A DNA stretch of 64,000 nt, from NCBI GenBank assembly GCA_036172245.1, contig JAYWIR010000037.1, forward strand, positions 1,488,001-1,552,000, given 5' to 3'. The stretch is from Raillietiella orientalis. Taxonomy: Eukaryota. The number at the start of each line of letters is the position of its first letter. Within the stretch, counting starts at the first letter, position 1. Under the pieces are notes generated by a model. The model was not told where the DNA came from. It was given only the letters and a program-made list of their open reading frames with translations, and searched no databases. Positions 4,072 through 63,563 of this stretch are shown piece by piece. Both the position numbers and the translations under genes were made by a program.

Positions 4072-5950
4072 TGTTTTAACACGCTTACTCTGGGATGTTT
4101 ATTTAAAAATAAAGAAACACACAAATCACTGGGAACTCAGTTCCCAGAAATCAATGACAACAACAACAACAACAAGTTGCCAGAGAATGACCACCGCCCT
4201 TTCAAGAGAGTTCGGAGTAGGAATGGGGAGGCAATAAATAATTGAAAAAAAGGGGGGATAAGGACAGGGGTCTTTGGTGTTGTCAAGTGTTTTCTCCCTA
4301 GAGTTGGAGCTGGATGCAAGCGATCTCTCTGACGATTTCTTGGAGGTGAGGCCACCTTTCAGCCATCCTCATCAATGCAGCTGCCGTGCAGGTGGTCCTC
4401 CTTCGTCTGCGCCTCAGGCACACGGCGAGTTGTGACGGTGGTGCGGATGCAACAGATCACTGCGACCACGGTGGCTGCCGTAAGTCTTCTTTGCGTGAAG
4501 AAACACCACCGCATCACATCCATTGCGGTGTCCTCCGGTTTGTAGAGCGTCAAAGACAGCCTCTTGAAGAGTTCCTCGAGGACACTGCACTCTCCCAAGA
4601 GGTGCGGAAACGATCCCATCGCCCCACACCTTGAGCAATTTGGGGTGCAGCTTCCCCGGAAACCAGGTGCCTGCGCTGATTGTGCAATCCCCGGTGCAGA
4701 ACATCCCGTTTCCACCGCTACGGGAGTATTGCAGTGTACAAAGAAGGGACTTTGACTTCTTCGGAGATCGCACTCAGCAGCTCGCTGCACAGTTCTTTTG
4801 CCCGAGAATGAGCAGTGGCAACATCCACCAACTCATTTGTCTTCCAGCCATCAAGAAATTTTTCTACTCCTTCAGTTTTGCAAGAGAACTCTTACTCGCT
4901 TTTCGACGGCTATCATTGTCTGTCCATTGGGCAGACGGTGCTGCGGCTAAAGGTGCGATGGCTATCCGGGACCATTGGGTTCAGTCCTGTAGGATATCTC
5001 CCCCAGGTTAGGAAAAAATGTTGCCTGTGCAGCCGTGCGGCGAGGGCAATCGACGAGGGGAGGAGTTGCAAGCTCATCCAGAAGCGTCTCATAGACCAGT
5101 GCGTGCACAGAATGCAGAACATGACCAGGGTCTTCAGTGACGTCGGGCAGAGGCTGAAAAGCTACGAACATGCAAGCAGGAGTTTCGCACAGATGAGGCG
5201 GCGCTCGAAATGTCACGGAGCAGCTCCATCGCCGAAAGTTTGAGGTAGAGAGTCGATTTGTGGTGAGTGGTCGATTTCTAGTATTGATTTAGTAAGTGAT
5301 TCTGTACCGCTGCAAGTTCCTCGTATCAGCTCATCTCTGCTCAGAGATTTACCAGGAGCATCGATACTACCCGATGCTACTGCTCAAGGTTATTTGTTTT
5401 CTCTTTGCTTCTGGAAACTGTACAGCTTGTTCGGAAATTCCAAGCATCACTCCTCGTGTAGACGATAGGGGATGAACCATGCCCTATCGTCCACTATTCC
5501 TTCCACATCTACCGTTTACAGCCTGCATGAATGCAAACTTCCAGCGTTAAATTGTGCTCCAGAGTAACCGACGTTTGCTCAAAAGTCGCTGCAATATATT
5601 GGTCTGGTCTCACTCCGGAGGAATGATCGTCTTGACCTCGAACCGATGTAAGTGTTGTGATGACTGAAAGTGCTTGGAGCTGTTAGGAAACAACAACTAA
5701 AAGGGCAAGACGAAAGTACGGCAGGTCATTCATCTGTCTGCTTGCAGTTGATGAAACGGCATGTTTCCAGACGCTTGGCTGACTGTTAAGTGTGGTACAA
5801 TGCTCATGTTCATTTGATTTCCAGCTTCCAAGAAGTTTAGCCCTTCATCTCGGAAATGCTGTTGAAAATCTCACCAGAATTTACAGTGTGAAGTCTTACT
5901 GAAAAGCGATCACTTGAGCTGTGGTTGGTTTCAAGCTGAAAATCCAAAAG
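4072..5950 (-). mobile_element. Family A L1/Tx1-like element, old copy (RT remnant plus C-terminus and 3' UTR)
   Basis: ORF 4359-4790 contains NCSRCG...FPHLLGECSVLEELFKRL, homologous to 28420/52261. The 3' UTR shares AAAGACCCCTGTCC (4261-4276) and a decayed AATAAA terminus at ~4072-4103. An NG...G...PLS RT motif lies at 5460-5520. Confidence 0.75.
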
Positions 5951-10494: not shown

Positions 10495-11227
10495 GAGGGA
10501 CGTTTCCAATGCTCGGCCCTTTAAAAAGCCAGCGAGGCTACCTCTCTGGGGAACTGGGATCGACTGAATCGTGTTCAAAGGCTGTTCGCATGGAACCCTC
10601 TTCCCACATCAGACCTCCAGGATCTCTAGGGAATATTCGCTGTCACCTCCAAGATCTGCTCCGATCGCGGCTCTAGGCGAGTTCCTGTCCAAACCCTTCT
10701 GCGCTCACCGTTGCGACCCTCCTACTCCCTGAAACCTGAGGAACCTGCCGTTCTCCGATGACCGTGCATCGGAAGGCAGAAACGTCTCGGTCTTAGCGGT
10801 CGGCTGTAGGGTCGGAGTTTGAGCGCCATCCGTTTTCTGGGGCAGTTGCTTCCTCAGGAGAGTCGTTGAACATTCCTCAGCAGATTTCGAGTTCCATGGC
10901 CACAGTCCCGCTCTCTATAGCAACCAACACCTTTCATGGGATCTGATGAGTGTTGCATCGGGCGCCGTAAGTCCCCGAGGTAGCGCCAGTTATGCTTGCC
11001 AAAATGAATCCACTGGGTGCTTATGAATCCGACAGTCGAGCTGCAGCAATCAAACAAGCCGGTGACTGACCATTGAAAGTTTGAGAACAGGTTGAGGTCA
11101 TTTCCACCCTAAGGTCTCGAATCATTCGCTTTACCGAACGAGCCTCGGTTCTCCTTCCATTTTGGCTAGCGCCAGCTATCCTCAGAGAAAATTGGGAAAG
11201 AATTAGCGGTTGCTAGATGATTCGATT
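10495..11227 (-). rRNA. 28S rRNA: Decayed internal fragment (~730 bp) of 28S/LSU rRNA; non-functional copy
   Basis: The plus strand matches the reverse complement of conserved LSU blocks in order: GGATCGACTGA, CCAAGATCTGC, CCCTCCTACTC, AGCGCCATCC, TTCCATGGCCAC, CAACCAACACCTTT, AAAGTTTGAGAA.AGGTTGAG, AATCATTCGCTTTACCG, GCGCCAGCTATCCT, CTAGATG.TTCGATT. Many substitutions fall in invariant positions. Confidence 0.95.
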
Positions 11228-18010: not shown

Positions 18011-18115
18011 TTGCTTTATCGTTCCCCATTTTCGTCTATGCTCCTCGAAGGCCAGGAAAGATGCGAAGGGCTCAAGGCGTTCTCGTAGGTTTGCCGTATC
18101 GTTGCTGCCGGCTGT

Positions 18116-18436
18116 TTGTCACCCGGGTGCGCCGGGGCGTTTATTACAAACTATCCGGGAACAGAGTTCCCGGACAAAGGGGAAAACAAGATACGAAGGG
18201 GGTGGGATCCCCGACACGCAGGTCGGTATGCTGAAAGTCCGGAACGAAAGGGAGGGGACCACAAATACACTACTATAAAAAATAAAAATAAAAATATGGA
18301 GGGCAGGGGACAGGGGTCTTTGGTGAGTCCGTTCCTTCCTTTCAAAACCGGCGATGGATGCCGGCGATCTCTCTCCTTACGTCCTGTGGAAGATGGGCCC
18401 ACTCGGCAGCCGACGACATGCATGCGCTGGCTAATC
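18116..18436 (-). mobile_element. Family A young 5'-truncated copy (~320 bp)
   Basis: Highly similar to 28670-28973. Perfect 16 bp TSD CGTTGCTGCCGGCTGT at 18100-18115 and 18437-18452. No poly(A). Confidence 0.95.
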
Positions 18437-20399
18437 CGTTGCTGCCGGCTGTAAGATACAACAACGGAAACTCTTCAACAAGCACGTATGAAGATGGATG
18501 CACGCCGAACATGTTTGAGGAAGTACCATCGATGAGACACAGTTCTAGTCAGATTTAGCAAGTTGTGGCAAGTACCTCCGTCCACCTGGCCAAAAGGTTG
18601 GCGGAAGAAAGCTTCCTAAGATGTTGTCATCTTGCAAAATGGGCACTAGTTGATGCAGTGGCTGAATTAGATAAATCAAATGAAAGTAGTGGCAAAGACT
18701 CAACAGTGCTGCTTTTGCGGGACAACTTGGGACATCTGCTGCAAGGACAGAGGATGGGTAGCAAAAAGGGGGCCATAATTAATTGCTGCATTCGGTTGTA
18801 TCAGTTCCAAAAATAAAAGCTCAATATCAAGTAATATAATGATTATATTCAGCAGCCTTGGCAAGCAGCGCATCACACTCCTTTGCTCAACAGAACTGCT
18901 GTTTTTGTGTGCCATGCTTGGCTTATGCAATCTTAGGTACTTGTGCTGCGGTGCAGAAGAGTTTCCTACTTTTTGTATAGTCAAACAAAATGTCGGATTA
19001 TGTTTGACTACACAAAAAGTATATCATTGTCACAATCCTTTTGTCATTGTTTGTTGTATGTCCTTAAATAAGGAGTCCTACAAATAAACACGCTAGCACT
19101 GGGAAAAAAAAGATACTACGAAGAGGAATGATTCTTACATCATATTCCTAAGAACGTCTTTGACGTTCTAAGAAGATGTGGATTCCTTGTTCTTAGGATG
19201 AACATATTGTTGATGTGGGAATGCGTGAAATACTAAATATGAGCCATGCATCTGAAAAACGCCATTAGTCTGTCTTCGTGCAGTTCTGTACGGCTATGTA
19301 GCTGCCCTCCAGATCTTTGAGTATAAACTGCTCAAATTCCATCTTCAAAGTTTCCTTGTAACAACCAAACGAGTGATGCAGTTTAGGAGCCAGAGCAAAA
19401 GAGGAAATCTGGTAAGCTTTATAAGGAACTTCTGAATATCTGTTCTTCTGAATGCCTTTTGAGCGCACTTTTGAGTCTTTGCTTCTCCTTGAAAGCATCA
19501 ATCGTATTTTCGGTAACCTGATCGTTCGGATGGGTTTCCCGGAAACATTCTGCTCCACGTCACGAAACTGCAATTTTCAAAACTCGACAGACATTCAGAA
19601 GAATGCAACTGTAAAATTTTGCTGCTGCTGAAAAATGTGATGTCTCTTTGAAGAAATATCAGATCGAGATGATTCCGATTGCGAAATTCGTTGGGTGCGA
19701 AATGATTGCAGATGAAACTCGTAAGTACTCAGTTTTGAAGAAAAGTACTGTGCTTTTAGCTCTGTGCTGGGTTTAATCATGGTTACCTTCATTCATTATG
19801 ATTGCTATTGGTTTCACTCACTACAGCTGAATTGCAACTGCGTCTTTCACGGATATTGAAGTAAGTGCATAAGCTGTATACTGGCTCAAAGCAATGAGAA
19901 GTGATGAGACTGTATACTTCTTACCTCAACTCGCATCTGTATGACAATTACCTGTCATCTTAAATTCCTTCGGAGACATTACAATTATCTCTTTTGAATT
20001 CCAATTTGGAATGCAATTCACATGTATCGTTGGAATTGCAATGTCTAACGACCACACTCTACATGATAGAAAACTCAAATTCGATTAACTTGCATGTTTG
20101 ACAATGTACAATTTCTAATGCAACTGTTTTTGATCGATTTTTCGTATTAGGGAATGGTCCATATTTCTTGATTCTGTCATGTCTTTTCTCTCTCCATGGA
20201 GCATACGGCCATTTCATGGTGTATCTTCTGTTTTGTCTGGCAAGTGAAATTCAAAACTATCATGAATCTGGACTTATCACGACTTGTTGCAACTGCATCC
20301 TGATCAAGATAAACCAGCTTCCTAGGATAGGGTCCAAGAGAAGCAATATATTCATATACTATAAATAAAGAACCCAGCAATTCCAGAATGAGGAATCAC

Positions 20400-22953: not shown

Positions 22954-23593
22954 TTTTCCCCAAAACCCACAAGGGGTGGGGTGAATTTATTTTTGCATTT
23001 TTAAACATTCATACTATAGTTTCATTCGCACAATCACTTTCGCTTCACTTGAAGGTCCGTTGGGATATTCAAAGTTCTGCATTCAGGGTGGGTTTCCAGA
23101 TGTTTGGTTCCGGGCGTCGTCCTCAATCCTCTTCAGGATGAATCGGTACGTCCAGGCTTGGAGTCGTCCACAGTTCCTGATTCCAATCTCCCTGCGGATA
23201 AGTCCTTGTAGGATCTCCATGGGGGTTCTGGTTCTCCTGGCTTTTCTCATATTCCACCACCGCACACGTATGGCGGTGAAGAGGGCAATGGTCATCCTCA
23301 CCATGGGATTGTAACAGGGAACATTACCATCTCCCTGAAACATCCCGGCGAGGATTTCCATCACAGACTTGTTGTTGTGTCCTATGATCCTTTTCAGGAT
23401 CAGCCAGTCTCGTAGCAAAGTGGGACACGTCAAGATGTGTAGTCTCGTATCGATGTCTCCACATGCCGTGCAGTCTTCATCTTCCCTTCTCCCTGTGAAG
23501 TGCTTGAGCCTGGACCCGGTCTGGATTCCTCCATGGTAGAACATCAGGAGGTCGTCCAGAGTGTCCAGCGCAAGGTCACTCCTCCAGAGTACC
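22954..23593 (-). mobile_element. Family B L1/Tx1-like young 5'-truncated copy (640 bp) with open C-terminal CCHC-type frame
   Basis: ORF 23083-23544 contains HGGIQTG...CTACGDIDTRLHILTC...W. Perfect 15 bp TSD TAATGGGTACCTCAA at 22939-22953 and 23594-23608. It ends in AATAAA, a GC hairpin and A4. Confidence 0.92.
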
Positions 23594-27624: not shown

Positions 27625-28076
27625 GTGAGTTTGCATTTTGCTATCTGGATGAGTTTAAGCCTTCTTGAAGGTTTATTGGTGCACAGGTTGCACGAATGTT
27701 TTCCATTTTTCCCCAAGTGGAATGCTTTTTTTTTTTGTTTTGAAAACTACGCAGCCATCATGCTGTCTGCCTGATTCCAAGCTTGAAAAGCAGATGTGCA
27801 TTTAAATTTTAAATACAGAAAAGAAACTCAACTTCAATAACAGGCAAGCGGTCCTGGTATTGGACATCATGAAACAAAAGTCAACAGCCTGATTTTATAA
27901 AACATCACCAAAAGTGTCCATGCACACAGTAAAAACCTCATGTCCGTAAATGCCAGGAAACGAGATAATGTGAGCAATGAATGCATTAGAGCAGATATGC
28001 TGTGAAGAATTGATACTTCAGGTTCGCTAAAGATGATATGCCTCTGCAATATGCCTTCACTATAGATACATCTCAC

Positions 28077-28973
28077 GCGCTGTCAGCCAGCAAGTGATGA
28101 CAGCTGCCTACCGGCGATGTAGGAGGTCGCCTGCAACATCGCAGGAGCAACCCGACCCATAGGTGGCTGGAGGACTTGCTAACTGGCAGACACCTCCATG
28201 CCTCGCATCATCCCCAAGGGACTCCTTCGGTGGAGCGAACATTTGAGTGTGCCCCCCGAAGAATTTGTGGTCCCTCTCTCCTGTTTGAACACTTCTGTGT
28301 TCCCCCTTTCTTGGAAGCAGGACGTCATCATGCTGGTGCATTGAGGTGTTCACTCCAGCCATCGGACGAACCGTGTTTCCGGGGGAGTTGTCTCCCCGAA
28401 CTGTGAACGGTGCGGGAAAGTGGAAACGCTACCGCACCTGCTCTTGGACTGCAGTGTCCTCCAAGGACTGTGGCGGAGGCTGGCCTCAGCTCTCCAGGAC
28501 CAGGGGGACACCGCAAGAGACTTGGTGCGCCGCTTCTTCACGCCAGGCAGCCTGTCCTTGGGTGCTGTCATCGCAACGGTCTGTTGCACCCGCGCCATCG
28601 ACAAGGCCCACCGAGAGCTGGAGAAGCAGGCGATTCGTCGACAGGCCACCGGAATAGCCGACGAGAACATGACGTCGGCTGCCGGTTGGTCTCATCTTCC
28701 AGAGGACATAAGGAACGAGATCTGCGGCATCCATAGCCGGTTTTAAAAGAAAGGAACTGCCCAAACCAAAGACCCCTGTCCCCTCCCCTCTTCATATCTT
28801 AATTTCTATTTTTTATATGGGCATTTGTGGTCCCCTCCCTCCCGTTCCGGACTTTCGGTTTACCGACCTGCGTGTCGGGGATCCCCCCCTTCGTTTCTTC
28901 TGTGTCTTTTGTCCGGGAATTCCGTTCCTGGATAGTTTAGCAATAAACGCTCCGGCTGACCCGGGTGAGAAAC
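28077..28973 (+). mobile_element. Family A young ~0.9 kb copy (ORF2 C-terminus plus structured 3' UTR)
   Basis: Contains CERCGKVETLPHLLLDC. 13 bp TSD AGATACATCTCAC at 28064-28076 and 28974-28986. Near-identical in inverse orientation to 52036-52913. Confidence 0.95.
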
Positions 28974-31165
28974 AGATACATCTCACAGAGGCATGATCAA
29001 GGAATTTTCAATGAATTCATGAGATCGCCCGCTATGAATTTGCCATTTATTATGAGGGTTCTAATCAGAGTGCCCTTCCAGTTTCAAAGAATCGTTTTTG
29101 CGAAAGCTTGCAAGAAACTGAGGATGGAAGAGCGTTTCAGTTTTTGAAAGTAACAAATTATTTTATAACAAGGGCGAGAGTCGAGCGCTTCTTGAGAACC
29201 TATGCTGAGCCAACACGAGTTGCTTAGTAATCTCATAGGCATGCTGTGCAATTAAGAATTTGATCAAATGTCTCAAAGTGGAAACCGAGTTGAATCTTGA
29301 CTGAATCTTGAGTGAGTGAATCGTATTTCACCCTTGAAGTTTAAACCAATGTCTGTCTATGTTTCATACCTTCAGTTCGCTTTTCTGAGGCAGCTGAAAG
29401 GATCGTGACACTGGTATGAAAAATTCAATGCCAGGCTTTCCTAAAGAGGACAGGCAAGAACTCCCTTAATGAAAATCTACTGCAGGAAAAGAAGAAGAAA
29501 AAAAAAAAACCTCATTATCGAGAATGCAAACTGCAGGCTTACGGCTTTTAATTGAAGTGCACTTGAATTTCAAACTGATTAATAGCTTTCGTCACGAACG
29601 CACTCTGTTTGGCCTTTTACGTATCCTTCATACCCTTGGTGGAGGAAGTTTGCTATTCCTGAGCAGCACGGCTACTATTAACAGCTCTGATATTTTCTAT
29701 TAAGCTAAACTTAGATCCCGTGAGTTCAGGAAATGAGGGGCTTTCTGAGCTGTCAATGGCGACTGTACGCCAAGAAGCTTATTGAAAATTTCCATTTCGC
29801 ACCTTGGGATATAATTTTTAGTAGCTCCTTCCATGAATCTAAAAAAAACGAGCAAATAATGTCTGGACCACGACGGATGCGAGGGAACTTCACACGCTAA
29901 AAATATAATAATGGACGGTATAAAGCATAATACAAGTAGTTGTGGATTCGGAAGATCTTTCAGGAAACTGATTTCCATTCCAAACAAAAAACGCTTGACG
30001 AGAGAGCAGTCCGGGTGACTCAATAAAAATGGCTATTTGGATTGGATAAGAGGACGGAGCTCATAAGTCCCTTTGGTTCGCAGCTCTTCAGAATTGGCTT
30101 TATTTGCATAAGGAACAATCGATTGCATGTGAATTTGCTTTAAAAAGGAAAAAATACATCCGTTTAGAAATCCTCTTCAACACAAAGTCTGTTCTTGTTT
30201 CTCTGATAAATTAGCCGATAGCCCTGCCTTTAGAGCTTGCAACGACTGTGTTGATGAGAGGAACAAGCATTAAAAGTCTTCGGAGCATTTTCAGCAGCAA
30301 ATTTCTCCACTTTCAACTTCCGACTGCAAGATGACGGTGACGAGTTGACATTTCAAGCTATTAACTTCGTTTCATGAGCTTCTTTCTTCGAAGAGATGAC
30401 TTGAACTGCTTATTTCTCAAGAGGGGCTCCTGGAAGGTCTTTTAGAAGAAATGCAGGATTGTCGAAGCATCCATTTGGAACCAATAGTTAAGGAAACTCT
30501 TCCGACCAATTCTCAATCCTCAAATTGAGTTCCACTTTTCATGTCGCTGCTGCTTATATCTTTGTGTCAGGAAAAACTGCTCACATAGTGTTTTACTGGC
30601 AAAAGAGCAAGAAGCTCGGTGAAGCCTTTGGAAGTTCGGCACACCTACACTTGAAAGTGAGCACCTATTCAAAACCGTAAAGCACTATCAGAAAGACCTC
30701 GGAAAATTAGTGGAAAATAATCTACATCAAGGTTCAAATATTCCAAAAATTGAAGAAAAAAAATTCTCAACTGTTGCAACATGGGTACAAATATTAAAAC
30801 GGAAACTGGAATCTAGGATTCCAAAGAATCCCAAGAAAATATGGGTCCATGAATAAAGCTTTTTGTGAAAGCGAAGATAACACCGGGTACTAGTTGCAGG
30901 TGCATCTACAGTACAGGTTATAATAAAAGAGGTCAATTCCTTGGAGCACCAAGTAGGATGAAAATACAATGCTGGATTTTTTAAAGAGAATCTATGACCT
31001 TATCTGACTGATTGCTTCTAGCAACAGCTTCGTGGCGGCATTTCCTCTCACAATAAGGGTACCGTGAAATGAGCACGAAACCTAAAGATAAAAAGGCTGA
31101 AAAAGGTTGAGTGTTATTACTATCTTGTCTCTGATGGATGAACATCAAACATTATCAATGAATTT

Positions 31166-46300: not shown

Positions 46301-48439
46301 GATATGTAACTCTGTAATCCTGCCACTATGAGTATGCAAAGCAGAGAGAATGCTGAGAATGTCGCATGTTTCTTGTTCGCAACGAACATACCACATTAGC
46401 TCGGTGTCACCAGCAGGTTTCAAAAGCAATGGGAACTCGATGGCTAACGGACTTTAAGGACTGACGAAAGCCCGATAATTGGATTCTTGGTACTGCGAGC
46501 ATCCATCCATCTGGATGGAATTTTGTGAAATCGTGATAGGAATACACCTTGAGAACGCATTCGTTTCTGCTCGTCGTTGTGAGATTATGAATGCATTCTA
46601 GTCGTAGGTCTGGCATCGTTTTCTGCAAGGAAAAAGCAAGAAACACTCTGGAGAAATTGGCATCAGTTTGCCATCAGGATCCCATCTGCCTCAAGACAGT
46701 ATGTCTTCGTTTCAGCTCTTCACAGACTTGCTCAGGAGTTCAGAGTTTCAGAGTAAGAATCGAAATGCCAGCCTGTTTCCAGATTCCGTTTCTTCCTCAT
46801 CAACGCTCATCTCAGATAAGTTCTCAGATTTGTGTGAAATGGCCGGTGTAATGACTTTCTGAGAAAACAAGTTTGCAAAAGTGTCTTTCTTGCTGCTGGC
46901 ACGCGCCCGATAAGGCGGCTTGAAATTTCAGCGTCATGTGACCCACTGTTTTGATGGATTACAAGCTTATTTGTCTGATGACACACTGAGGAAAGGATCC
47001 AAAGATCGGAAGTAAGATTCACGTGCAAGAGAAGGAGTGAGAAGAGAACGAGAAAGCAGGCACAGTTTGTTCCCCCAAAAGGAAAGACATACAGCTCAGA
47101 TCCAGCTCTTTGGGTTTTCTGCAAAAAGCACATGGAAGAATGCAGTTTAAGAGAGAACAGAAAAGCGTAATGGATTATCGACATGAAAAGCATGAACAGT
47201 TTGATCAAAGATATCGGATAGGATCATAAAATTGAATCTCTCCTAGGAGATGAAGATACTTATTCGTTATCCACATCCGGAAAAAAAATTGAAAATGCAA
47301 ACTCATTTCGGGCACGTGGAATTATTTCGAAGAGTGATCTTCCTCTTATGTTTGGCCATTCGAGCTATGATTGCATTAAGGCTGAAATCACCTCCGAAGG
47401 TATTTCCACCTATTTGTGTAGGTCTGTTCCGCCAATCCTGGAGGAACAAGTACGTTGCATACGAGAAGTACACCTATTCGCTTTAAATGATTGTGCATTA
47501 CTGCGCAGCATCATAACAGTGACCCTTCGTATTCAAATGTACGTGCTTTCTCATGTTTAACTTACTTCTCAATAAAAATGAAGTTCAGAACGAAGTGATT
47601 CAAGAAAAGAAAAAAAAAACTTCTTGCAAACTAAATAGCATTCGCACGAAAAATGCGCAACTCGACTATCATTCCGAATCAATTTCCTGATGGTCTTTCG
47701 GAGTAATATGGAGCAAACGACTTTTCGAATGTACTGCCAACGGTGAAATTTGACTGTATTCACGAAAAACCATGGCTGTTATGGAAATTTGAGAAATATA
47801 CAAATGCCGGCATCTAACGAAAATTCTGAAGGAAGCTCGGGACAAAGCATCCTCAATCTGGGCTGGAAGGCTTTTCTATGGAACAGCGTATCTTGCAGTG
47901 TGATTGGCAAAATTTATAAGTCCATTCCAAAACTCAGGAAAGAAATTTTTCTAGCCTGACGTGTAACCCATGGGATGAGAAAAGGGAAAATTTTCCTATA
48001 AACAGTGTCTCTTAAAAGTCTGCTTGGATGAACACCTGCAAAGGTTTATTTGGAGACCCGAATGGAGTAAAGTGATTCAAAAGAACGCAACTTTGCAAGA
48101 GACTAAAGGGTGTCGTATTACATCATTGAAATTGTCGAATTAGTCATCATCATGTGTGGAATTGGCTGTGCGATGAATCCTTGCCAAATTCGTTTTCGGT
48201 AACTCCCTGGAACAACCTGCCTTGGCGCTGCGAGTTACTCACATAAGTTCATGCTTAAATATGTTCTTGCGCAGGCACTCAATGGAAATTCAGAGTGCAT
48301 TGCATGGTTGGGCCTTCCATCAGGGCTGCTGCTGCTGTTGACAGAATCAGTTCATCAAAAATTCACTCAAAAGTTCTTTTTGAATTTTATATGGAAGCAG
48401 ATGACATTTCCGTTAGACCATCCCTACAGCCTCAGTCGC

Positions 48440-48706
48440 GAGGAGAGAGCGAGATCGCCGGCATCCATAGCCGGTTCTGAAAGAATGGAACAGCCCAAAC
48501 CAAAGACCCCTGTTCCCTACCCTCCCCATATCTTAATTTCTATTTTTTATATGCGTATTTGTGGTCCCCTCCCTCCCGTTCCGGACTTTCGGTACACCGA
48601 CCTGCGTGTCGGGGATCCCTCCCCTTCGTTTCTTCCGTGTCCTTTGTCCGGGAACTCTGTTCCTGGATAGTTTACTAGTAAATGCCCCGGCGCACCCGGG
48701 TGGCAA
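48440..48706 (+). mobile_element. Family A young 5'-truncated copy (~270 bp, almost only the 3' UTR)
   Basis: Highly similar to 28715-28973. Perfect 14 bp TSD ACAGCCTCAGTCGC at 48426-48439 and 48707-48720. Confidence 0.95.
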
Positions 48707-48799
48707 ACAGCCTCAGTCGCATCCGCATTTGGAATCAGCATGCGAATAAAGCGCACTTTTTTTTTTTGGCCGACAAAAAAGAATAAGTTGATGCTTACT

Positions 48800-50650: not shown

Positions 50651-51888
50651 TTCGATTGCGGACCATATAAAATAAATGCCTCAGTCTCTCGGTTATCAAG
50701 GTCACTCCTTGTCATCTTTTGGAAGGTGCGTTTTGACGCTCTATTGCGACGTAAAGCAAAAAGAGAAGGGCAAACTTTGCAGGCCTTTTCCCTACAGTCT
50801 TAGACTTTGCAGTTCTTCAATTCGACAAAATTTTACTTTTCCAGCTGTAAACGAATTTGCGCACCGTTTTCGACGTGTCAGTGATTTGTTTTCAAAATCT
50901 GATCCTTCTGAGGGGACTTTTGTCTTAGGAAAGGATCATCTGGTCCACTTCGCTTTCCAGTTTCTTTAGTTGGAAACAAACATAACAGTATTCATGAAGA
51001 CAAGTAGCGCGGGAACGTGAAAAGAAAAATCAAGCAAACTGATTTGCGAAAGATTTTCATTTTTAGTGAGAGGCAGTAAACTCCTGATCTTGGAATCCAA
51101 ATGATCCAGGGATTTTCGGGAAAGAAATGCGTGTTTCTGGATCTTGCTAACAGCTATCTAAACTCGGTGACTGACCACTTACAAAGAAAAGTACATCTGT
51201 TCTCCTTCATGATGAGTTTGTTGGATGCATCCTAAATAATTCCTGTTTTATTCAGCTGCATTAAAAAAAAAGGAAAGCGCTTGTTTTTATGTATGCCCTG
51301 ACTTTCCCGGCTTACTCAAAACCGTTTCCCTGGTTACAGTCCGGATTGTAAATCCTCAAGTGAAGCATTCAAAGGGATTCGATGGAGTTCATCTCTTGGC
51401 TGGTCGGCATTTCGGGGCTGATGAACGGAAGACGTCAGGCTCGTTTCGCTGATTCCGATAAACACTTGTATCCCATGTTATCTGATTCTCACCTTGGATC
51501 ATTGGTCCGATCCACTTGTGCTCCTCACACTGAGCTCGCAAACGGCGCTTTGGCAGGCACACGCGTGATCTATTGCTGTCCAAACGTTTCTCACAGACGT
51601 GTGGTCCTTCAGCTGTCGTGTGCTCACTTCGCAAACAGACAGCAGTTCTAAGAATTCTATTTGAGGATCGCTGCTCTTTTCGTATTCGTGTTCCTGCTCG
51701 TATGCTGATCCAAGACCTCGGCGGTTTCTGCTTCAGCACTTGCGTGTTCATGCACTTCTACAGCAGCAACGTGTTACGAGATGTTCACTCATTTAGTCCG
51801 TTTGGCTTTCATACAGCCATTCAGGCGTTTACATTCCCGATTAGAATGGAAATACCTCACAAGCGATTGATCCAGAACAAAACCTTCC

Positions 51889-53740
51889 TTTTTTTTTTTT
51901 TTTTTTTACAAACATATCTTCTTGTAAACGCTACAGCGATCTCAGGATCCTCTCCTATTCGGAAAACATCCAAATTCCTCCGCTCCCAATCCGACTCGAT
52001 GTCTATTGTCTGATTGCCCGCGTCGGAGGCTTTGTTTGTCACCCGGGTGCGCCGGGGCGTTTTTTCATAAACTATCCAGGAACAGGGTTCCTGGACAAAG
52101 GACACAGAAGAAACGAAGGGGGGGATCCCCGACACGCAGGTCGGTAAACCGAAAGTCCGGAACGGGAGGGAGGGGACCACAAATGCACATATAAAAAATA
52201 GAAATAAAGATATGGGGAGGGGAGGGGACAGGGGTCTTTGGTTTGGGCTGTTCCTTTCCTTCAGAACCGGCTATGGATGCCGGTGATCTCGCTCCTAACG
52301 TTCTCTGGAAGATGGGCCCACTCGGCAGCAGACGTGATCTTCTCGTCGGCTATTCCGGTGGCCTGTCGACAAATCGCCTGCTTCTCCAGCTCTCGGTGGG
52401 CCTTGTCGACGTCGCGGGTGCAGCAGACCGTTGCGATGACAGCACCTAAGGCCATGCCGCCTGGCGTGAAGAAGCGGCGCACCAATTCTCTTGCGGTGTC
52501 CCCCTGGTCCTGGAGAGCTGAGGCCAGCCTCCGCCACAGTCCTTGGAGGACACCGCAGTCCAAGAGCAGGTGGGGGAGCGTTTCCACTTTTCCGCACCGT
52601 TTACAGTTCGGGGAGACAACTCCCCCGGAAACACGGTTCGTCCGATGGCTGGAGTGAACACCTCAATGCACCAGCATGATGACGTCCTGCTTCCAAGAAA
52701 GGGGGAACACAGAAGTGTTCAAACAGGAGAGAGGGACCACAAATTCTTCGGGGGGCACACTCAAATGTTCGCTCCACCGAAGGAGTCCCTTGGGGATGAT
52801 GCGAGGCATGGAGGTGTCTGTCAGTTAGCAAGTCCTCCAGCCACCTATGGGTCGGGTTGCTCCTGCGATGTTGCAGGCGACCTCCCACCTCACCGGCAGG
52901 CAGCTGTCATCACTTGCCCCGTCGGAGACTCTGTGGTTGAGGCTTTCGTGCGTGTCACCTTGCGTCACGGGTTCGAATACTCCGGCAGAAACTGAGGCCA
53001 CTGCGTCGTTGGGTTCCGAGTTTCTCCTGCGATGGCGCTGATTGGCCGAAACATTCGGGCGTGGCACCGAGGGTGAATTAAGCTGGAGTCCCTCGATGAA
53101 GGCCGGAACAATGGGAGTCGACCTTCGAGTCCTTCCAGGAATCAAGGAGTGGGGAGTTCCCCCTCCGGTCGTACAACGGAGAGCAAACCCCCCACACCGG
53201 GGGAACCCTTCCGGTTTAAAGATGGAGCAGGAGCCTTTACAGGCACCTCTCTAGTTGTTCAAAGAAGCGGACTCCCCCCTCTGTTGCGGGGGGAGACCCT
53301 CCGAGTCTTCGTCTCTTCACAGAGTGCAAGGAAGCAAACGAGAGCGATTCCCTGCGGGAAGCTGCAGCTCCCCTTCTGAGTTTCGGAAGCATCCCTTCGG
53401 GGTTCTCTTCAGAGGAGTGAACAGGAGCAGTTCCCTTGCGGGTTGCCTCCGGAAAAGAAATTCCTACTAACGGATCCTTTCCGCATTTCCTTCGGAGAAG
53501 TCGAAATGGAGAGCACATTCCCCCCCCCCACATTGGGGGGGAGGTGTGTCGCTCCGAAGAGAATGAAGAAGGAGATTCCCTTCGGGGTTCCCCTTCCGAG
53601 ACAACCAGGAGGGAGGTGAGATCCCTCCGTCCAGGGGGATCCCTCCCCACGCGTGAGAGGAACGGACTCCGAGCCCTTCCTGGACTCGTAGGGCGGACCC
53701 CCATCCAGGGGTGCCCCCTATTTTGATGTCTCACCGCCTC
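51889..53740 (-). other. GC/CpG-rich, low-complexity coding-like segment ending in a minus-strand A19 run, interrupted by the 52 kb family A copy; possibly a retroelement ORF1 fragment
   Basis: Sharp GC rise at 52920-53740 with overlapping R/S/P/G/E-rich ORFs. The frame continues across the TSD (...HESLNHRVSD | SDAGNQTIDIESDWERR...) to T19 at 51889-51907. Confidence 0.35.
52036..52913 (-). mobile_element. Family A young ~0.88 kb copy
   Basis: ORF 52261-52587 is nearly identical to 28420-28746. Imperfect TSD TTGCCCGCGTCGGAGGCTTTGT (52014-52035) versus TTGCCC-CGTCGGAGACTCTGT (52914-52934). Confidence 0.95.
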
Positions 53741-56807: not shown

Positions 56808-57650
56808 GCTGTCACCAGGGTGCTTATTGAAAAAACAAAATAAACAAACAATAAACAATTTTGAGACGCGACTCCCGAAACCAAAACAAGGGAAGTTCAA
56901 GAGCAGACCTCAGCGACACGCATGTCGGCTACTGATTAAGTCCAAAGCGGGAAGGATGGGGTTGATAAATACATAAATAACGGGAAGGTAGGAACCGAGG
57001 TCTTTAATGAGAGACGCTCTGTCTGGATCAGCACCTCTGAAGAATGATGGCTATCTCCTGCTTAACATCCTCCTGCAGGAGAGGACACCTCTTAGCCGTT
57101 CTCATGTGGGCAACCGCTTTGCGTCGCTTCGCTGCGTCCGAGACTCCAGAACCTGGCAGACTGTGGCGATGGAGAGGATGCAACACATCGCTGCAATGAA
57201 GGCGCCTACAGAGAGTCCACGGTGCTCCAAAAATCGCCGCGTCAGATCCTTGATCAGGATCCTCCAGAGTGCGGAAGAAAGCCTCCTCCACAGTTCCTGG
57301 TGCTCACTGCAGTCCAACAATAGGTAGGGATACGATTCTATCATCTCGCATCTTAAATAGTTTACGAATAGAACTCTCTTAGAAACCAGGTTTCCACGCT
57401 GGTTGTATTGAAGATCACAATGCAGAGACAGCAGGAAGTGCTGTTTCCGCCTCAAGGGGAACACAAAAGTATCATCTCTAAAGTAGAACACTTTCTGCTT
57501 CCAGGAATTCCAGTTCACTGGAAAGCAGAAGAGGTTTCAGAAGCAAGGTCAGTTTCCTCAGCAGAAAGCCAAATCCCCGCATTCCGTTTCGGTAGCGCTG
57601 CTGCAGCGATGATTGTCTTCCGGTGCTGGCTCAGCGCCGAAGGATGATGC
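56808..57650 (-). mobile_element. Family A older copy (C-terminus plus 3' UTR)
   Basis: IESYPYLLLDCSEHQELWRRLSSAL...TRRFL (ORF 57102-57518). Terminus AATAAGCACCCTGGTGACAGCA on the minus strand. Confidence 0.85.
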
Positions 57651-58837
57651 ACGTCGGCACGCACTATAGGTAAGTCCACAATTTAATACAGGGTGCCAGC
57701 TGTAGGAACTGGACCGACAGCCTGATCTTTTCCAGTGTCAGAATGCCCAAGCCACAATCCTGATGAGGCGCTACCAAGTCCTAATGGCGGATCTAGAACC
57801 TTGCAGCTCCCCACAGGATTTTCTTCAGATGACGCGGTGCCTGGATCATTGCCAAATCGGAGTAGGAAAAGGTGGCGCCAGACAAACAGAAATCAAAACA
57901 AAAAACTCACAAGTTGAGAACTAATGGAAGAATGAGAACTAAAACTCTTTCCAGAAAGCAAAGAGTAGCACTTCTTTCAATGTTTCTCACAAGAAAACCT
58001 ACTCGCACTTCGATCTCAGTCAACTGAGATCGATCTGTCACTTTTGCAGACCACCCGAAATAGAATGATGGTTTCTATGATCAGCTCCTGACCGCATAGC
58101 AGTATCTAAAATTTTCTCCGTGTGCAACGCATGTGGACAGCTTTGGAACGCCGTTTTTCCCGCAACCAATGAAGAGACAAACAGGAATCTCTTTCTGAGG
58201 AAAATGAATGTGGGAAAATTCCAAAACTCACCACGCTTTGGGGCTCGAAGCTTACTCATGCTTAGCTGCGCTTCAGGAAAGAGTTGATTCTGCATCTTCA
58301 GCTGCCCTTCTCGAAGCCATTTTTTTTCTATCAGCATCGGATGACCAGCCTCGTTCTTTCCATAGTTCAGGAAATACTAACGTTAGCCAGTAATTTTTTT
58401 TAAGTTGAGAATCTCACTAGCAATCGCTTCGCTCCCCCGCTAAGCATTCTGGGGAGCTACAACGTAAAATTTTCTGAATGCTTGCCCTCAGAGGCTTAAC
58501 TGATCGGAGGAGCTAAGCTTCTCACGCAGGACTTGATGATGCGCCTGAAAGGAAGACAAGCTGCTCACAAACTCTTCATGCCAAGTACGAAGTTTGCGAA
58601 GCAAACCAGCAGTCTTTTCTCTACTGGCTGCAGCTGCTTCACTTCGAAAGCTTTGGAAAGCATGACAAGGATCAAGTTTGACAAGGTTTTCCACTATTTC
58701 CACCATCTCTTTACTGTGAAGATCCTTTTTTTGGACGATTCACTGTGATATTCTAAATTCAGAGTGGTTCTGGAAATCCTGGACCTTCGGGTTGGAACTC
58801 GTGGCTAAAGTTAGATCATGATTCTTGCACGAGAATC

Positions 58838-59740
58838 TTCCACTTAAGGACGCCGGGACATTTATTTATGAAAAATAAATGGAGAAATCGGGAAGGCTGC
58901 TCCCGAAGTAATAAAAGCATCAAGAAGAAACCAAAAAATTTCAAGAGTAGAGTGCACTGCCATGCAGGTCGAGATTTCTAAAAGTCCAGAACAGGAATTC
59001 ACAGTTAAGAGGGAGTCTGGAACGGAAATTGACTTTTCCAGGAGGAAAGGGACAAGAAGTAAATAAATAAAGAAAAGTTAAGGGTTTGGACAGGGGTCAC
59101 CGGTGTTGGCTGTTCCTTTTTTTAAAAACCGATGCTGGGTGCCAACGATCTTCTTGACTTCTTCTAGGTAAGGCCACCTAGCAGCCGTTCTCATGTAGAT
59201 GGGTTGCCGTTGAAGTGACCTTCCTTCACTATGCCCAAAACTCCAACAAATGGCCGGCCGTTGCCTTGGTGCAGATGAACCATATGATTGCAATCATGGC
59301 TCCTAGCGTGACCCCACCTCTCGCGAAGAATCGCCGCAGCAGGTTCTTAGCAGTGTCATCAGTGTGCAGGAGTACTGAAGCTAGACTTCACCAAAGTTAC
59401 TAGAGGAAACTGCAGTCCAAGAATAGGTGCGGAAACGACTCAAGCAGTTTGGGGATGCAGCTCCCCTGGAAACCAGATTCTTACACTGGTTGCATTATGG
59501 ATCCTAGTGGGAAGTGCTGTTTCCACTTCAAGGGGAACACGAAAGTGTACACGAACAGAAAAGGGACAACGAGTTCTTTGGAGCTCGCTCCACCGAAGCA
59601 GTCTCTTCTCCCGACGACGTGGAGTCAAGGTGTCCACCAGCTTGCTCGGCTTACAGCCGCTCGGGAGTTTGCTTCTTCCTGCAATGGTGCAAGATTCCAC
59701 GAAAAGATGGTTCTTTTTCGTTTAGCTTAGCAGACATTCC
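58838..59740 (-). mobile_element. Family A older copy (C-terminus plus 3' UTR)
   Basis: Colinear with 52200-52880 (GCTGTTCCTTT, GAAGAATCGCCGCA, TGCAGTCCAAGA, GGGGAACAC, GCTCCACCGAAG). Terminus AATAAATGTCCCGGCG on the minus strand. Confidence 0.85.
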
Positions 59741-60079
59741 AGGCAATCCAGTGTAGTGAAGGGAAGCCAACACGCGCAGTTTTTTGTTGGCTTCTGGCGA
59801 CAATTTTTGCACCTCAGTTGACACATTGCCCGAGGTTTCTAACTGTCTTATCCTTACCTGCTAAGGAATTATTGGGCCCACTCTAAGGCCCATCTTTGAG
59901 AATCTTTGAGCCCGAAGAGCTCCATAATTCTCTTCAACACGCAGAAATACGGTGGTACTCTTTCTCCACCAGGAACTCGCGCGCCAGTGGAGCCGTCACC
60001 ACAGCAAATGGTAAGTAAGATCTCTCTGATCTGATCTGATCTGTGATCTAGGATGGGTGCACAGGAGATGAATGCTTGC

Positions 60080-60749: not shown

Positions 60750-63563
60750 CGTAATCGAGGATGCGGAAGTACCGATGATCAACTCGCTTCTTATGTATTC
60801 ACGTGGTCCTAACCCTCCTTCCCCCGAGGCAGGATCGAGGGAGGCATTGTGAGAAAGCCTCGCATCCAGGAAGTTGATCCCTGCCGAGGCTCAAATCCTA
60901 TTCCTGGAGGTTGACGCTACCTCTCCTGCATTCCGGGGGCGCCATCTTTCGAATTCCAAACCAGCGTCTCCTTTTTGAGACCCATTACACCAGAACACTG
61001 TGTTCGTCCCAGACTGCGCGGCTGATGCACCAGAATCACTCGCTGGTAACTTTGACGCTGCTGAATCGCTTCCTCGTCTTGTAAATCGAATCACCAACTG
61101 ATTTTTCGCTCGTCCAGAGTATGGTTACGGTATTTCAATTTCGGGAAGTTTATTTGAAAAAACAAACTACAAGTTAGAGGGAAAAGGTAATTCTCAAAAA
61201 CAAGAAATGACAAAAAGAAAATTTTTCCTAGTGAACTTGTCCTTTTCGCGCGTACCTGGTTGCAGATTCAAGCACGCGTAGCGCAGCAAAGCCCGGAAGC
61301 GGAAAAATCGCTGCTGCAAACAAGCGTCATCGAAGGGAACGTCGGGTACCTTGATGATCGTGGTCGATCTCCACAATGTGTTCGACTAAGTCAACCAAGA
61401 GCTTCCTCTGGAGCTCTTGGAACGCATTGATCTCCCGGAACAACTCTTAGTCTACCCATGCTCCTGCTGGAACCACACGCTAACCTGAGTTCATTTCAGC
61501 GGCCGCCACGTGTACTGTATTCCCGTGCGCAGGGGTATCAGTCTGGACGACAGCTTAAGCGCTCTGCTCTTCAGCATCATCTTCGAATTGGGGCTCAGAA
61601 AGTACAGGCTAACTCTGACTGACCTGCCAAGCTCCTGCCCGGGCACGCCGTCCGTGGCTGTCTACGTGGATGACCTGCTTATCGTTTTATCCATGTCCAA
61701 TGCGGTGTCCTGTCTCGAGGATTGCTTCGAGCTGATTCGTCGGAGAGCGGGCGTGAGCGTGAACAGGAGCAAGAGTATGGACGTTCCGGTGGGTGCCTCG
61801 TGGGAGGGGCAGTCCGACTGGCCGGATCCACAGGAGGATCCCCACGGGCAGGTATTTAAAGTACCTTCGCTTTCCGTTGGGCGTCCTTGGCGTTGCCGAA
61901 GTGTGGTCGAGATGTCTTTGGAAGGCTGAGTTGGCCCTTAGCCCGTTCCTCCATGGCAAGTTCAGCTTGCCGAAACAGGCTCTTATTTGGAACACCTTTG
62001 CGGCTCCCTTGTCCGCTCACTCATTTTTGTTTGTGCGCCACCCTACGAAGAGAAACAGAGGGCTCAGTGTTTGCTGAAGAGCGCTCTCCGGGGACCCGCA
62101 AGGTCCAGGATACGCCTCAAAGACTTGGAGGCTCCGCGTCGGCATGTCGGCTCAGGCATCCTGACTCTGGAACGATTCGGGCTGCGAGTGCAGCTCCGAA
62201 TGCTGTCCCTGTGTGCCCAGTTGTGGACTACCCTGTTGTGGGCGCCTGTACGCTTCAACCTGCAGAGATGCGCCGACAGCGAAGAATTGCTCTCGCTGCT
62301 GACGAGCTTGAGTTACAGTATGCAGGAGTTCGGCTCCCACCTGAGGCAACTCGCCTTTCTAGTAAAAGCCCATCCGTTGATCTCCTGCCGCCCAAAGAAC
62401 TTTAACGCGTGGAGGAAGGAGACTTTTGAATCCTGGGCTGCAATTAAGGGAATTCGCTCTGAAGGTCTTCACCCTCTGAGGCATTTGTTGCCATGACCTC
62501 TGGAAGTGGTGGTGCAGGACGGGGTGAAGTTTTCGACCCTCGCCTCCATACCCGTCTACGAACCGCTGTCTGCCCTCAGGGCGAGAGACGATATTAGCCA
62601 AGCGGAGAGGTGGGAGTTTTCTTGCACCACCGTGGTAAAAGCCTCCTCCTCCTCGGTTCCTGGAAGATGCGTGAGTTGGTGGATGCTGTCACTCAGCGTT
62701 CTGTAGCGAAGGAACTCCTTCTGTGGGGCGAACTTTTGAGTATTGCTCTTGAAGTACTCGTGGTTCCTTCCCATTGTATGGACGCTTACTTGTTCCCCTT
62801 TGTTCGGAAGCAAGCCGTGCTGCTCTTCATCCACTGGGAATTCCAGTGTAACGAGCGACGGCATCGAGCTTCCGGAGGGGTTCCATCTCCGAACTGTGCC
62901 AGGTGCGGGTCGACGGAGTAGGTACTGCACTTGCTATTGGACTGCGGTACCCTCCAAGAACTGTGGCGGAAGCTAGCAACAGCACTCCTGTACGAGGAGG
63001 ACACCGTCCGAGACGTCCTGCAGCGATTCTTTGCTCCGAAAGTCCTCTCGATGGACGCTGTTATTGCAACCATGAGCTGCATCCGTGCCATCATTGGTGC
63101 CCGACAGGTACCAGAAACCATCACGCAGCGAAGGGAGGTCACCAGTATGGCAGCCACCTACATCAAAACAGCTGCAAGTAGCCTCACCTGGAAGAGGAAG
63201 CGATGAAGGAGATCACCTGCATCCACCGCCGGTTGATGGACGGATAGGAGCGGCGGACCCAGTGATCCTTGTCCCTTTCCTTTTTTTTTTCTTCTTGTTC
63301 TCCATTCCTGTTCTTTCTGTAACTTTCCCGGGGCTCTTTGTTCTCATCTCGGCGCATACAGAGCAAAAACAAAGATCCCTGTATCTTCCCACTCATTTTG
63401 TTTTCTTTTTTGTTGTCTTGGGCTCTCCACGTTCCGGACTTTCTGTTGTCCCGGTCTGCGTGCCAGTGAACTCTCTGCTTTGTTTCTTGCTGTCGTCAGT
63501 TGGGAACCAAACCACTGCTTTATTTTCATAAAATCAACTATGCGGCGTGACTGGGTGAAAAAC
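60750..63563 (+). mobile_element. Family A longest copy: pseudogenised L1/Tx1-clade ORF2 with reverse transcriptase and C-terminal zinc-binding motif
   Basis: VVDLHNVFD*V (~61360), RRGISLDDSLSALLF...YVDDLL...AGVSVNRSKS (ORF 61510), KYLRFPLG, GSGI, HW...CARCGSTE*VLHLLLDC. The UTR has CGTTCCGGACTTTC and the terminus GCGGCGTGACTGGGTGAAAAAC. Confidence 0.92.

Follow-up and report, generated by a model that had tools for sequence, protein, structure and literature searches.

Inverted pair of 5'-truncated LINE copies in Raillietiella orientalis with shared nonsense codons and mosaic similarity

Two copies of the 3' end of one LINE family, A and B, lie as an inverted pair with 23 kb between them in the window, as we call the whole 64-kb stretch of Raillietiella orientalis DNA that was analyzed; all the copies examined come from this window, and four of them belong to this family (A, B, C and D; Table 1). 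An earlier note on this DNA had placed A and B at these sites, and both were recovered there by an inverted-repeat search (arms 28090-28974 and 52033-52917, 885 nt, 94% complementary) and by blastn, in which positions 14-897 of A aligned with 52917-52034 at 94.1% identity. For B the site stood as described, while its 3' end was found at 52032 and not at 52036. When A and B were compared without gaps, 52 differences and no indels were counted in 884 nt (94.1% identity). Copy A contains the C-terminal 222 codons of ORF2 followed by a 3' UTR of about 227 nt, and the description of both copies as the end of a LINE ORF2 plus its 3' UTR holds. The flanks of A and B could not be aligned with each other and each copy has its own TSD, from which it follows that the two were inserted separately; A and B are thus independent insertions, as the note had maintained, and a segmental duplication is excluded.

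The surroundings of the pair are rich in repeats and apparently poor in genes. When the 24 ORFs located inside A, B and R (a related LINE, see below) were left out, the other 97 of the 121 ORFs of at least 95 aa in the window matched no Pfam family. The sole Rfam match in the window is an isolated 544-nt fragment of eukaryotic LSU rRNA at 10659-11202 on the - strand (RF02543, 185 bits, model positions 955-1444 of 3401), which might represent a pseudo-fragment of rDNA or else have been retro-copied. The upstream flank of B (52940-53000) has G+C-rich surroundings (55% over 52-54 kb) and shows, by eye, a GGGTTCGAATAC-like stretch on the + strand that resembles the T-arm of a tRNA; B may have been inserted into a decayed tRNA-derived repeat, and ARAGORN calls no tRNA in the window. 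Immediately downstream of the 3' flank of B there is a run of about 20 A on the - strand (~51885-51907), which may be the tail of another retroposed sequence.

Table 1. Positions in the window of the LINE copies, their duplications, stop codons and relatives, and distribution of the differences between A and B
Feature	Position	Strand	Remarks
Copy A	28077..28973	+	897-nt 5'-truncated LINE 3' end
TSD of A	28064-28076 (5') and 28974-28986 (3')	+	Perfect, 13 nt, AGATACATCTCAC
Copy B	52032..52913	-	882-nt, 5'-truncated, same family as A
TSD of B	52914-52930 (5') and 52014-52031 (3')	-	Imperfect, ~17-18 nt; 1 substitution and 1 indel
Copy C	48440..48710	+	271 nt, same family; 5' end at ~A position 630
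TSD of C	48430-48439 / 48711-48720		Perfect, CCTCAGTCGC
Copy D	18112..18436	-	325 nt, older; 5' end at ~A position 576; 15-19% from A, B and C
TSD of D	18437-18448 / 18100-18111		Perfect, CCGGCAGCAACG
(A)CAG/TAG target sites	28060-28063, 48426-48429, 18449-18452 (-), 52931-52934 (-)
Pair of predicted terminal hairpins	28909-28935 and 28948-28967	+	Precede the final ...AAACAG; no poly(A)
Relative R	61201..63560	+	Decayed 2.4-kb LINE of a related family, used as outgroup; RT with YVDD, zinc knuckle, related 3' UTR core
ORF2-tail fragments	4407-4850 (-), 23338-23553 (-), 57120-57841 (-), 59201-59762 (-), 61201-63560 (+)		Related, distinct LINE families
Shared TAA in ORF2 frame	28180-28182 (A); 52825-52827 (B)	+ / -
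Shared TGA in ORF2 frame	28342-28344 (A); 52663-52665 (B)	+ / -
TAG private to A	28120-28122	+	TGG in B; third in-frame stop of A
ORF2 stop codon	28744-28746 (A, TAA); 52261-52263 (B, TGA)	+ / -	Same codon position in both
Near-identical block in A	28122..28404	+	1 difference to B in 283 nt
Near-identical block in B	52603..52885	-	Contains the shared TAA (52825-52827) and TGA (52663-52665)
3' UTR stretch of 86 nt	28821..28906	+	0 A-B differences; core partly conserved in R (63.4 kb)
A-B differences	28091-28121		4/31
A-B differences	28122-28404		1/283
A-B differences	28405-28540		6/136
A-B differences	28541-28820		29/280
A-B differences	28821-28906		0/86
A-B differences	28907-28973		12/67

The four copies of the family have a common 3' end, variable 5' ends and TSDs, of which three are perfect (10-13 nt) and one is imperfect. 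All of them end in ...AAACAG (AAACAA in B) and lack poly(A), and the 19 base pairs predicted in the last ~70 nt are kept in every copy, with variation confined to one side in five pairs and never affecting both sides of a pair. A hairpin tail of this kind, without poly(A), would plausibly permit copying in trans; such tails, as work by Kajikawa and Okada in 2002 (cited in PMC5786205) is said to have established, let SINEs be copied in trans. In the four copies the target bases that directly precede the duplication are (A)CAG or TAG, matching the last bases of the element, and apart from the (A)CAG beside the TSD the four insertion targets are unrelated. Priming in which the 3' end of the RNA pairs with the nicked target may account for this match, as may a target preference. 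The position of the ORF2 stop codon is also common to the four copies, being TAA in A and TGA in B, C and D. No longer copy of the family was found in the window, since blastn with positions 1-570 of A returned A and B alone.

Other LINE remains are abundant in this region. The decayed LINE R retains an RVT_1 match (E 7.1e-08, 32.8 bits, cutoff 29.6), and the best PDB matches of its decayed RT are R2 (6e-05) and L1 (6e-03); A and B are too short to include the RT. Counting R, at least five decayed fragments of ORF2 tails are present that belong to other, though related, LINE families and have 23-45% protein identity to A, and the window is a LINE graveyard. Regarding DNA copies from elsewhere, a 46-mer of the near-identical block described below had no exact match in metagenome contigs, and a 24-mer common to the four copies had none in metagenome, genome or viral contigs. 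A word-index protein search returned nothing among longer proteins or among proteins of similar length. With an exhaustive protein search eight matches were obtained at E <= 0.001. Seven of them come from the ORF2 tails of distantly related LINEs, with 30-41% identity over 53-94 residues and E values near 1e-4; the best match, P0002 (3398 aa, 20 stretches), a repetitive protein of surface type, was judged spurious. Cluster mates of two of the matched tails carry APE, RVT_1 and zf-RVT, and one of them matches human L1 ORF2p with an E value of 7e-59. These relatives make the label L1/Tx1-like plausible for the family, the sole detectable outside relatives of its C-terminal domain having the domain set of L1/Tx1 APE-type LINEs; on the other hand, they are distant, the tail of the family lacks poly(A) and its four insertion sites share only (A)CAG. 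This L1-like LINE family is uncatalogued; its tail has two hairpins and lacks poly(A).

The ORF2 frame of A and B was set by a gapless alignment to R (62.65-63.18 kb), which extends over 175 residues with 45% identity (E 3e-51). Read in this frame, both copies carry a TAA and a TGA at codons where R has E (in WKMRELVD) and W (in FIHWEF), in agreement with what had been noted against the relative at 62.6-62.9 kb. The third in-frame stop of A is located at the left edge of the 283-nt block, its last base (28122) being the first of the block, and outside the block B has no in-frame stop before the end of ORF2. An altered genetic code in which TAA and TGA stand for E and W would fit the aligned residues; this idea was discarded, as long frames do not appear in the window under any reassignment of stops and the relatives have GAG and TGG at those codons. 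The translation of A ends with a CxxC-x7-H-x4-C knuckle, and the zf-RVT match in A is weak (E 0.0012, 19.9 bits), under the Pfam cutoff of 27.5.

The differences between A and B are far from evenly distributed. A block of 283 nt shows a single difference, versus 51 in the remaining 601 nt (8.5%; Fisher 4e-8), so that its divergence is some 25-fold lower than elsewhere in the element. The longest run without differences is 218 nt (28187-28404), a length reached in only 2 of 200,000 permutations (P 1e-5), and four differences are found within 12 nt at the left edge of the block, which is flanked by divergence on both sides. Both shared stops fall inside this block, a direct observation. When compared with R, the block has 61% identity and a dN/dS of 0.40, and the sequence 3' of it 63% and 0.39; judging from this correspondence, the block is not an intrinsically slow-evolving part of the gene. 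Nor was any special RNA folding detected in it, with a z-score of -3.1 as compared to -2.7 for the neighboring 283 nt and -2.0 for the homologous segment of R, and a role as a structured RNA was discarded given that the score is unremarkable beside both controls. The block, with its 218-nt run, thus has properties expected of a recombination tract, namely identity beyond chance with divergence on both sides, and the comparison with R and the folding controls speak against stronger constraint as its cause. Since both stops are in a block whose common ancestor is about 25 times younger, they count as one linked character, recently shared, and do not demonstrate that a stop-bearing lineage lasted while the remainder diverged by 8.5%. 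The shared stops had been taken in the earlier note as the sign of a defective source: they are indeed present in both copies, but both lie in one recently shared block. Gene conversion between the two loci had been named there beforehand as the finding that would speak against such a source, and its signature, a near-identical block, is what was found.

The rest of the element is not uniform either. Differences between A and B were polarized with the distant relatives at the protein level and with copies C and D at the DNA level. Between 28405 and 28683, one derived change was assigned to A and seven to B, with three uninformative; between 28684 and 28973, the figures were 15 in A and five in B, with five uninformative. 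With derived changes mainly in B to the left of ~28684 and mainly in A to its right (Fisher 0.004, for a breakpoint picked after looking), neither copy represents even decay from a single source. Both A and B are mosaics, made up of blocks along the element with different histories, as can be seen directly in the alignment. The differences outside the block are also unevenly spaced (chi-square P 0.0009, for segments picked after looking), and the difference-free run of 86 nt in the 3' UTR is marginal once the 218-nt run is removed (P 0.03); one 24-mer inside it, at 28862-28885, is identical in the four copies. No asymmetry in CpG decay was observed between A and B (6 versus 5 sites). Between A and B, 9.5 synonymous and 18.5 non-synonymous changes were counted 3' of the block; the resulting dN/dS of 0.61 is not clearly below 1 and does not separate the readings considered below.

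The 5' ends of A and B are 13 nt apart, or 17 if the GCAA common to the target of B and the element is counted, so the claim that they nearly coincide (within about 15 nt) is upheld. Alignments of the first 13 nt of A (GCGCTGTCAGCCA) with R (CCGCTGTCTGCCC, 62565-62577) and with a second relative, at 4.6-5.0 kb and here called relative E, show that these extra nucleotides are templated LINE sequence and contain no filler. At the 5' junction of B, GCAA (52914-52917) constitutes both the last 4 nt of the target and the 4 nt that precede the start of B in A, a microhomology that points to a template extending past the 5' end of B. In A coordinates, the 5' ends of the family are at 1, 14, ~576 and ~630, so that two of the four are within 13 nt; the chance that two ends among four copies lie no more than 13 nt apart is 0.03-0.15 under uniform or exponential length models. 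Copy A is colinear with the ORF2 of R and of relative E up to its first base, and no 5' part of the kind left by an internal deletion is present. Inspection of the alignment suggests that relative E extends beyond the A/B boundary, in which case this boundary would not be common to related families.

The explanation that we tentatively place first, at something short of even chances, combines two independent 5'-truncated insertions with a recent exchange of the block, most simply by gene conversion. A and B would each have arisen by its own target-primed insertion of a 5'-truncated cDNA from a single LINE family, whose source RNA would have the two hairpins and ...AAACAG at its end and lack poly(A), and both shared nonsense codons would most likely have moved as a single piece in a recent recombination event. 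The simplest route could be non-allelic gene conversion of the DNA itself, either between the two inverted copies across the 23 kb that separate them or with a third copy as donor; a long-lived defective master of 0.9 kb would probably not be the way in which the stops were inherited, and the proximity of the 5' ends would be either a coincidence or the result of a favored truncation point. That the exchange took place in DNA after insertion, and in which direction, is what we infer from the pair. Exchange is supported by the fact that the stops inside the block are shared, the one at its edge is not, and none exists elsewhere in B. The TSD of B has 2 differences in ~17 nt, and this imperfection fits with an insertion of B that is older than the 0.35% divergence of the block. 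For Alu elements, partial gene conversion between dispersed copies is described in PMC554112, at a rate said to be comparable to that of human Ta L1 elements.

Some points sit less comfortably with exchange. Gene conversion is inefficient between sequences that are only about 91% alike. About 3% of random substitutions in the frame create a stop, so that two or more would arise in 283 nt with a probability of 0.06 if decay has reached 5%, and of 0.13 if it has reached 8%; to this must be added the chance of coincident 5' ends given above, and the uneven, indel-free character of the differences outside the block, together with the fact that the difference-free 86 nt coincide with the conserved core of the 3' UTR. 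Such differences are more suggestive of source elements that diverged under selection than of copies decaying neutrally where they were inserted. If so, the exchange would have occurred among sources, with the stop-bearing block in a transcribed template, which comes near to the idea put forward in the earlier note: a defective source of ~0.9 kb, consisting of the LINE 3' end alone, transcribed and copied in trans. The copying would be done by the RT of an autonomous partner that reads the hairpin tail. A would then be a full-length copy and B one 13 nt shorter, and the block would be a constrained 5' module or the product of recombination between source elements. The nearness of the 5' ends and the improbability of two shared stops arising by decay of one copy are in its favor, as are the structured tail without poly(A) kept in the four copies, the lack of a dN/dS clearly below 1 after the stops, and the fit of the uneven, indel-free differences with divergence between source elements. 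However, if the stops were older than the split between A and B, the block should have diverged like the rest, and it did so ~25 times less; an identity of 99.6% over 283 nt beside ~10% divergence is hard to attain through constraint alone when the block is unremarkable in comparison with R. Furthermore, the 5'-most 31 nt form the second most diverged segment (4 differences), two of the four copies start elsewhere, the TSD of B is imperfect and there is no promoter-like head: ARAGORN found no tRNA genes in the window and Rfam, at gathering thresholds, nothing in A or B, so that neither a tRNA nor a 7SL, 5S or snRNA head was detected by these searches. Having rested on the shared stops and the similar 5' ends, the short source copied in trans has seen its main support weakened, and we regard it as possible but doubtful.

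Alternatively, both copies might be ordinary truncations of longer sources that already had the block with the stops, i.e. a defective or recombinant subfamily moved in trans, whose mosaic structure would derive from template switching or recombination, whether among the RNAs or the DNAs of the sources, and whose 5' end would be a favored stop of the RT. This agrees with the mosaic polarity, the uneven divergence and the shared stops, and the microhomology at the junction of B places the template further 5'; template jumps during LINE reverse transcription are reported in PMC2104539. Against it, the window has no longer copy of the family, a dead but mobile lineage plus a truncation hot spot would be required, and relative E appears to continue past the boundary, in which case none would be common across related families. 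We hold this origin to be unlikely. An artifact of assembly or polishing, in which reads of several copies were mixed and the consensus of the block became falsely identical, seems very improbable. Polishing errors are known that leave near-identical blocks within diverged repeats, and nothing in the data directly supports one here; the 3' part, common to all the copies and presumably most exposed to mis-mapping, is more diverged, and the junctions and TSDs of both copies are clean. Whatever likelihood is left after these four explanations belongs to others.

Several known systems can be set beside the pair. As in 5'-truncated, 'dead on arrival' LINEs, the copies have variable 5' ends and a common 3' end, TSDs of 10-18 nt, one microhomology at a 5' junction and a decayed ORF2 C-terminus with CxxC...H...C; A and B differ from these in their two common nonsense codons, near-equal 5' ends and mosaic similarity. 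The resemblance to the conversion of Alu Ye/Ya5/Yb8 and human Ta L1 elements, as described in PMC554112, resides in a short tract with a separate history and in flanks and direct repeats that remain untouched, whereas there donor and recipient are known from subfamily-diagnostic sites and from orthologous loci of other species and here the exchange itself is deduced from one pair. Non-autonomous LINE derivatives, as presented in PMC5786205 and PMC5753468, are either SINEs, with a small-RNA head and a LINE tail, or bipartite elements with internal deletions, such as RIME from Ingi, NARTc from L1Tc, Vingi derivatives, Bov-A and HAL1. A source made of the tail alone would be a variation on them. 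Elements of the RIME/NARTc/HAL1 type are likewise short and LINE-derived, have no working ORF2, need the enzyme of a partner and keep its 3' end; yet, according to the same sources, they retain the 5' part of the LINE, with the promoter, joined to the 3' part, and A and B have no 5' part. With SINEs that have LINE-derived tails the pair shares a structured LINE 3' tail for recognition, in this case the two conserved hairpins without poly(A), but no small-RNA head or internal pol III promoter was detected in A and B, and their body is entirely LINE coding sequence and UTR.

As the evidence stands, A and B are an ordinary truncated pair of an uncatalogued LINE family and a clear example of mosaic similarity, and no new mini-element has been shown yet. 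They also hold a lesson of method, in that shared nonsense codons argue for a defective source only if the sequence around them has the history of the element itself, which is untrue here. It is rather unlikely that the pair derives from a promoter-less, tail-only non-autonomous LINE, that is, a source of ~0.9 kb made up of a dead ORF2 C-terminus and a hairpin 3' UTR, transcribed and copied in trans by the RT of a partner, in which 28122-28404 would be near-invariant because it is useful, for instance for transcription or RNA stability. If true, a tail-only element would represent a third route to non-autonomy, beside SINEs and the bipartite, internally deleted LINEs. A short master would likewise mean that a LINE with a structured tail can yield a mobile derivative having neither a small-RNA head nor the LINE 5' part, and would bear on the first origin of SINE-like elements.
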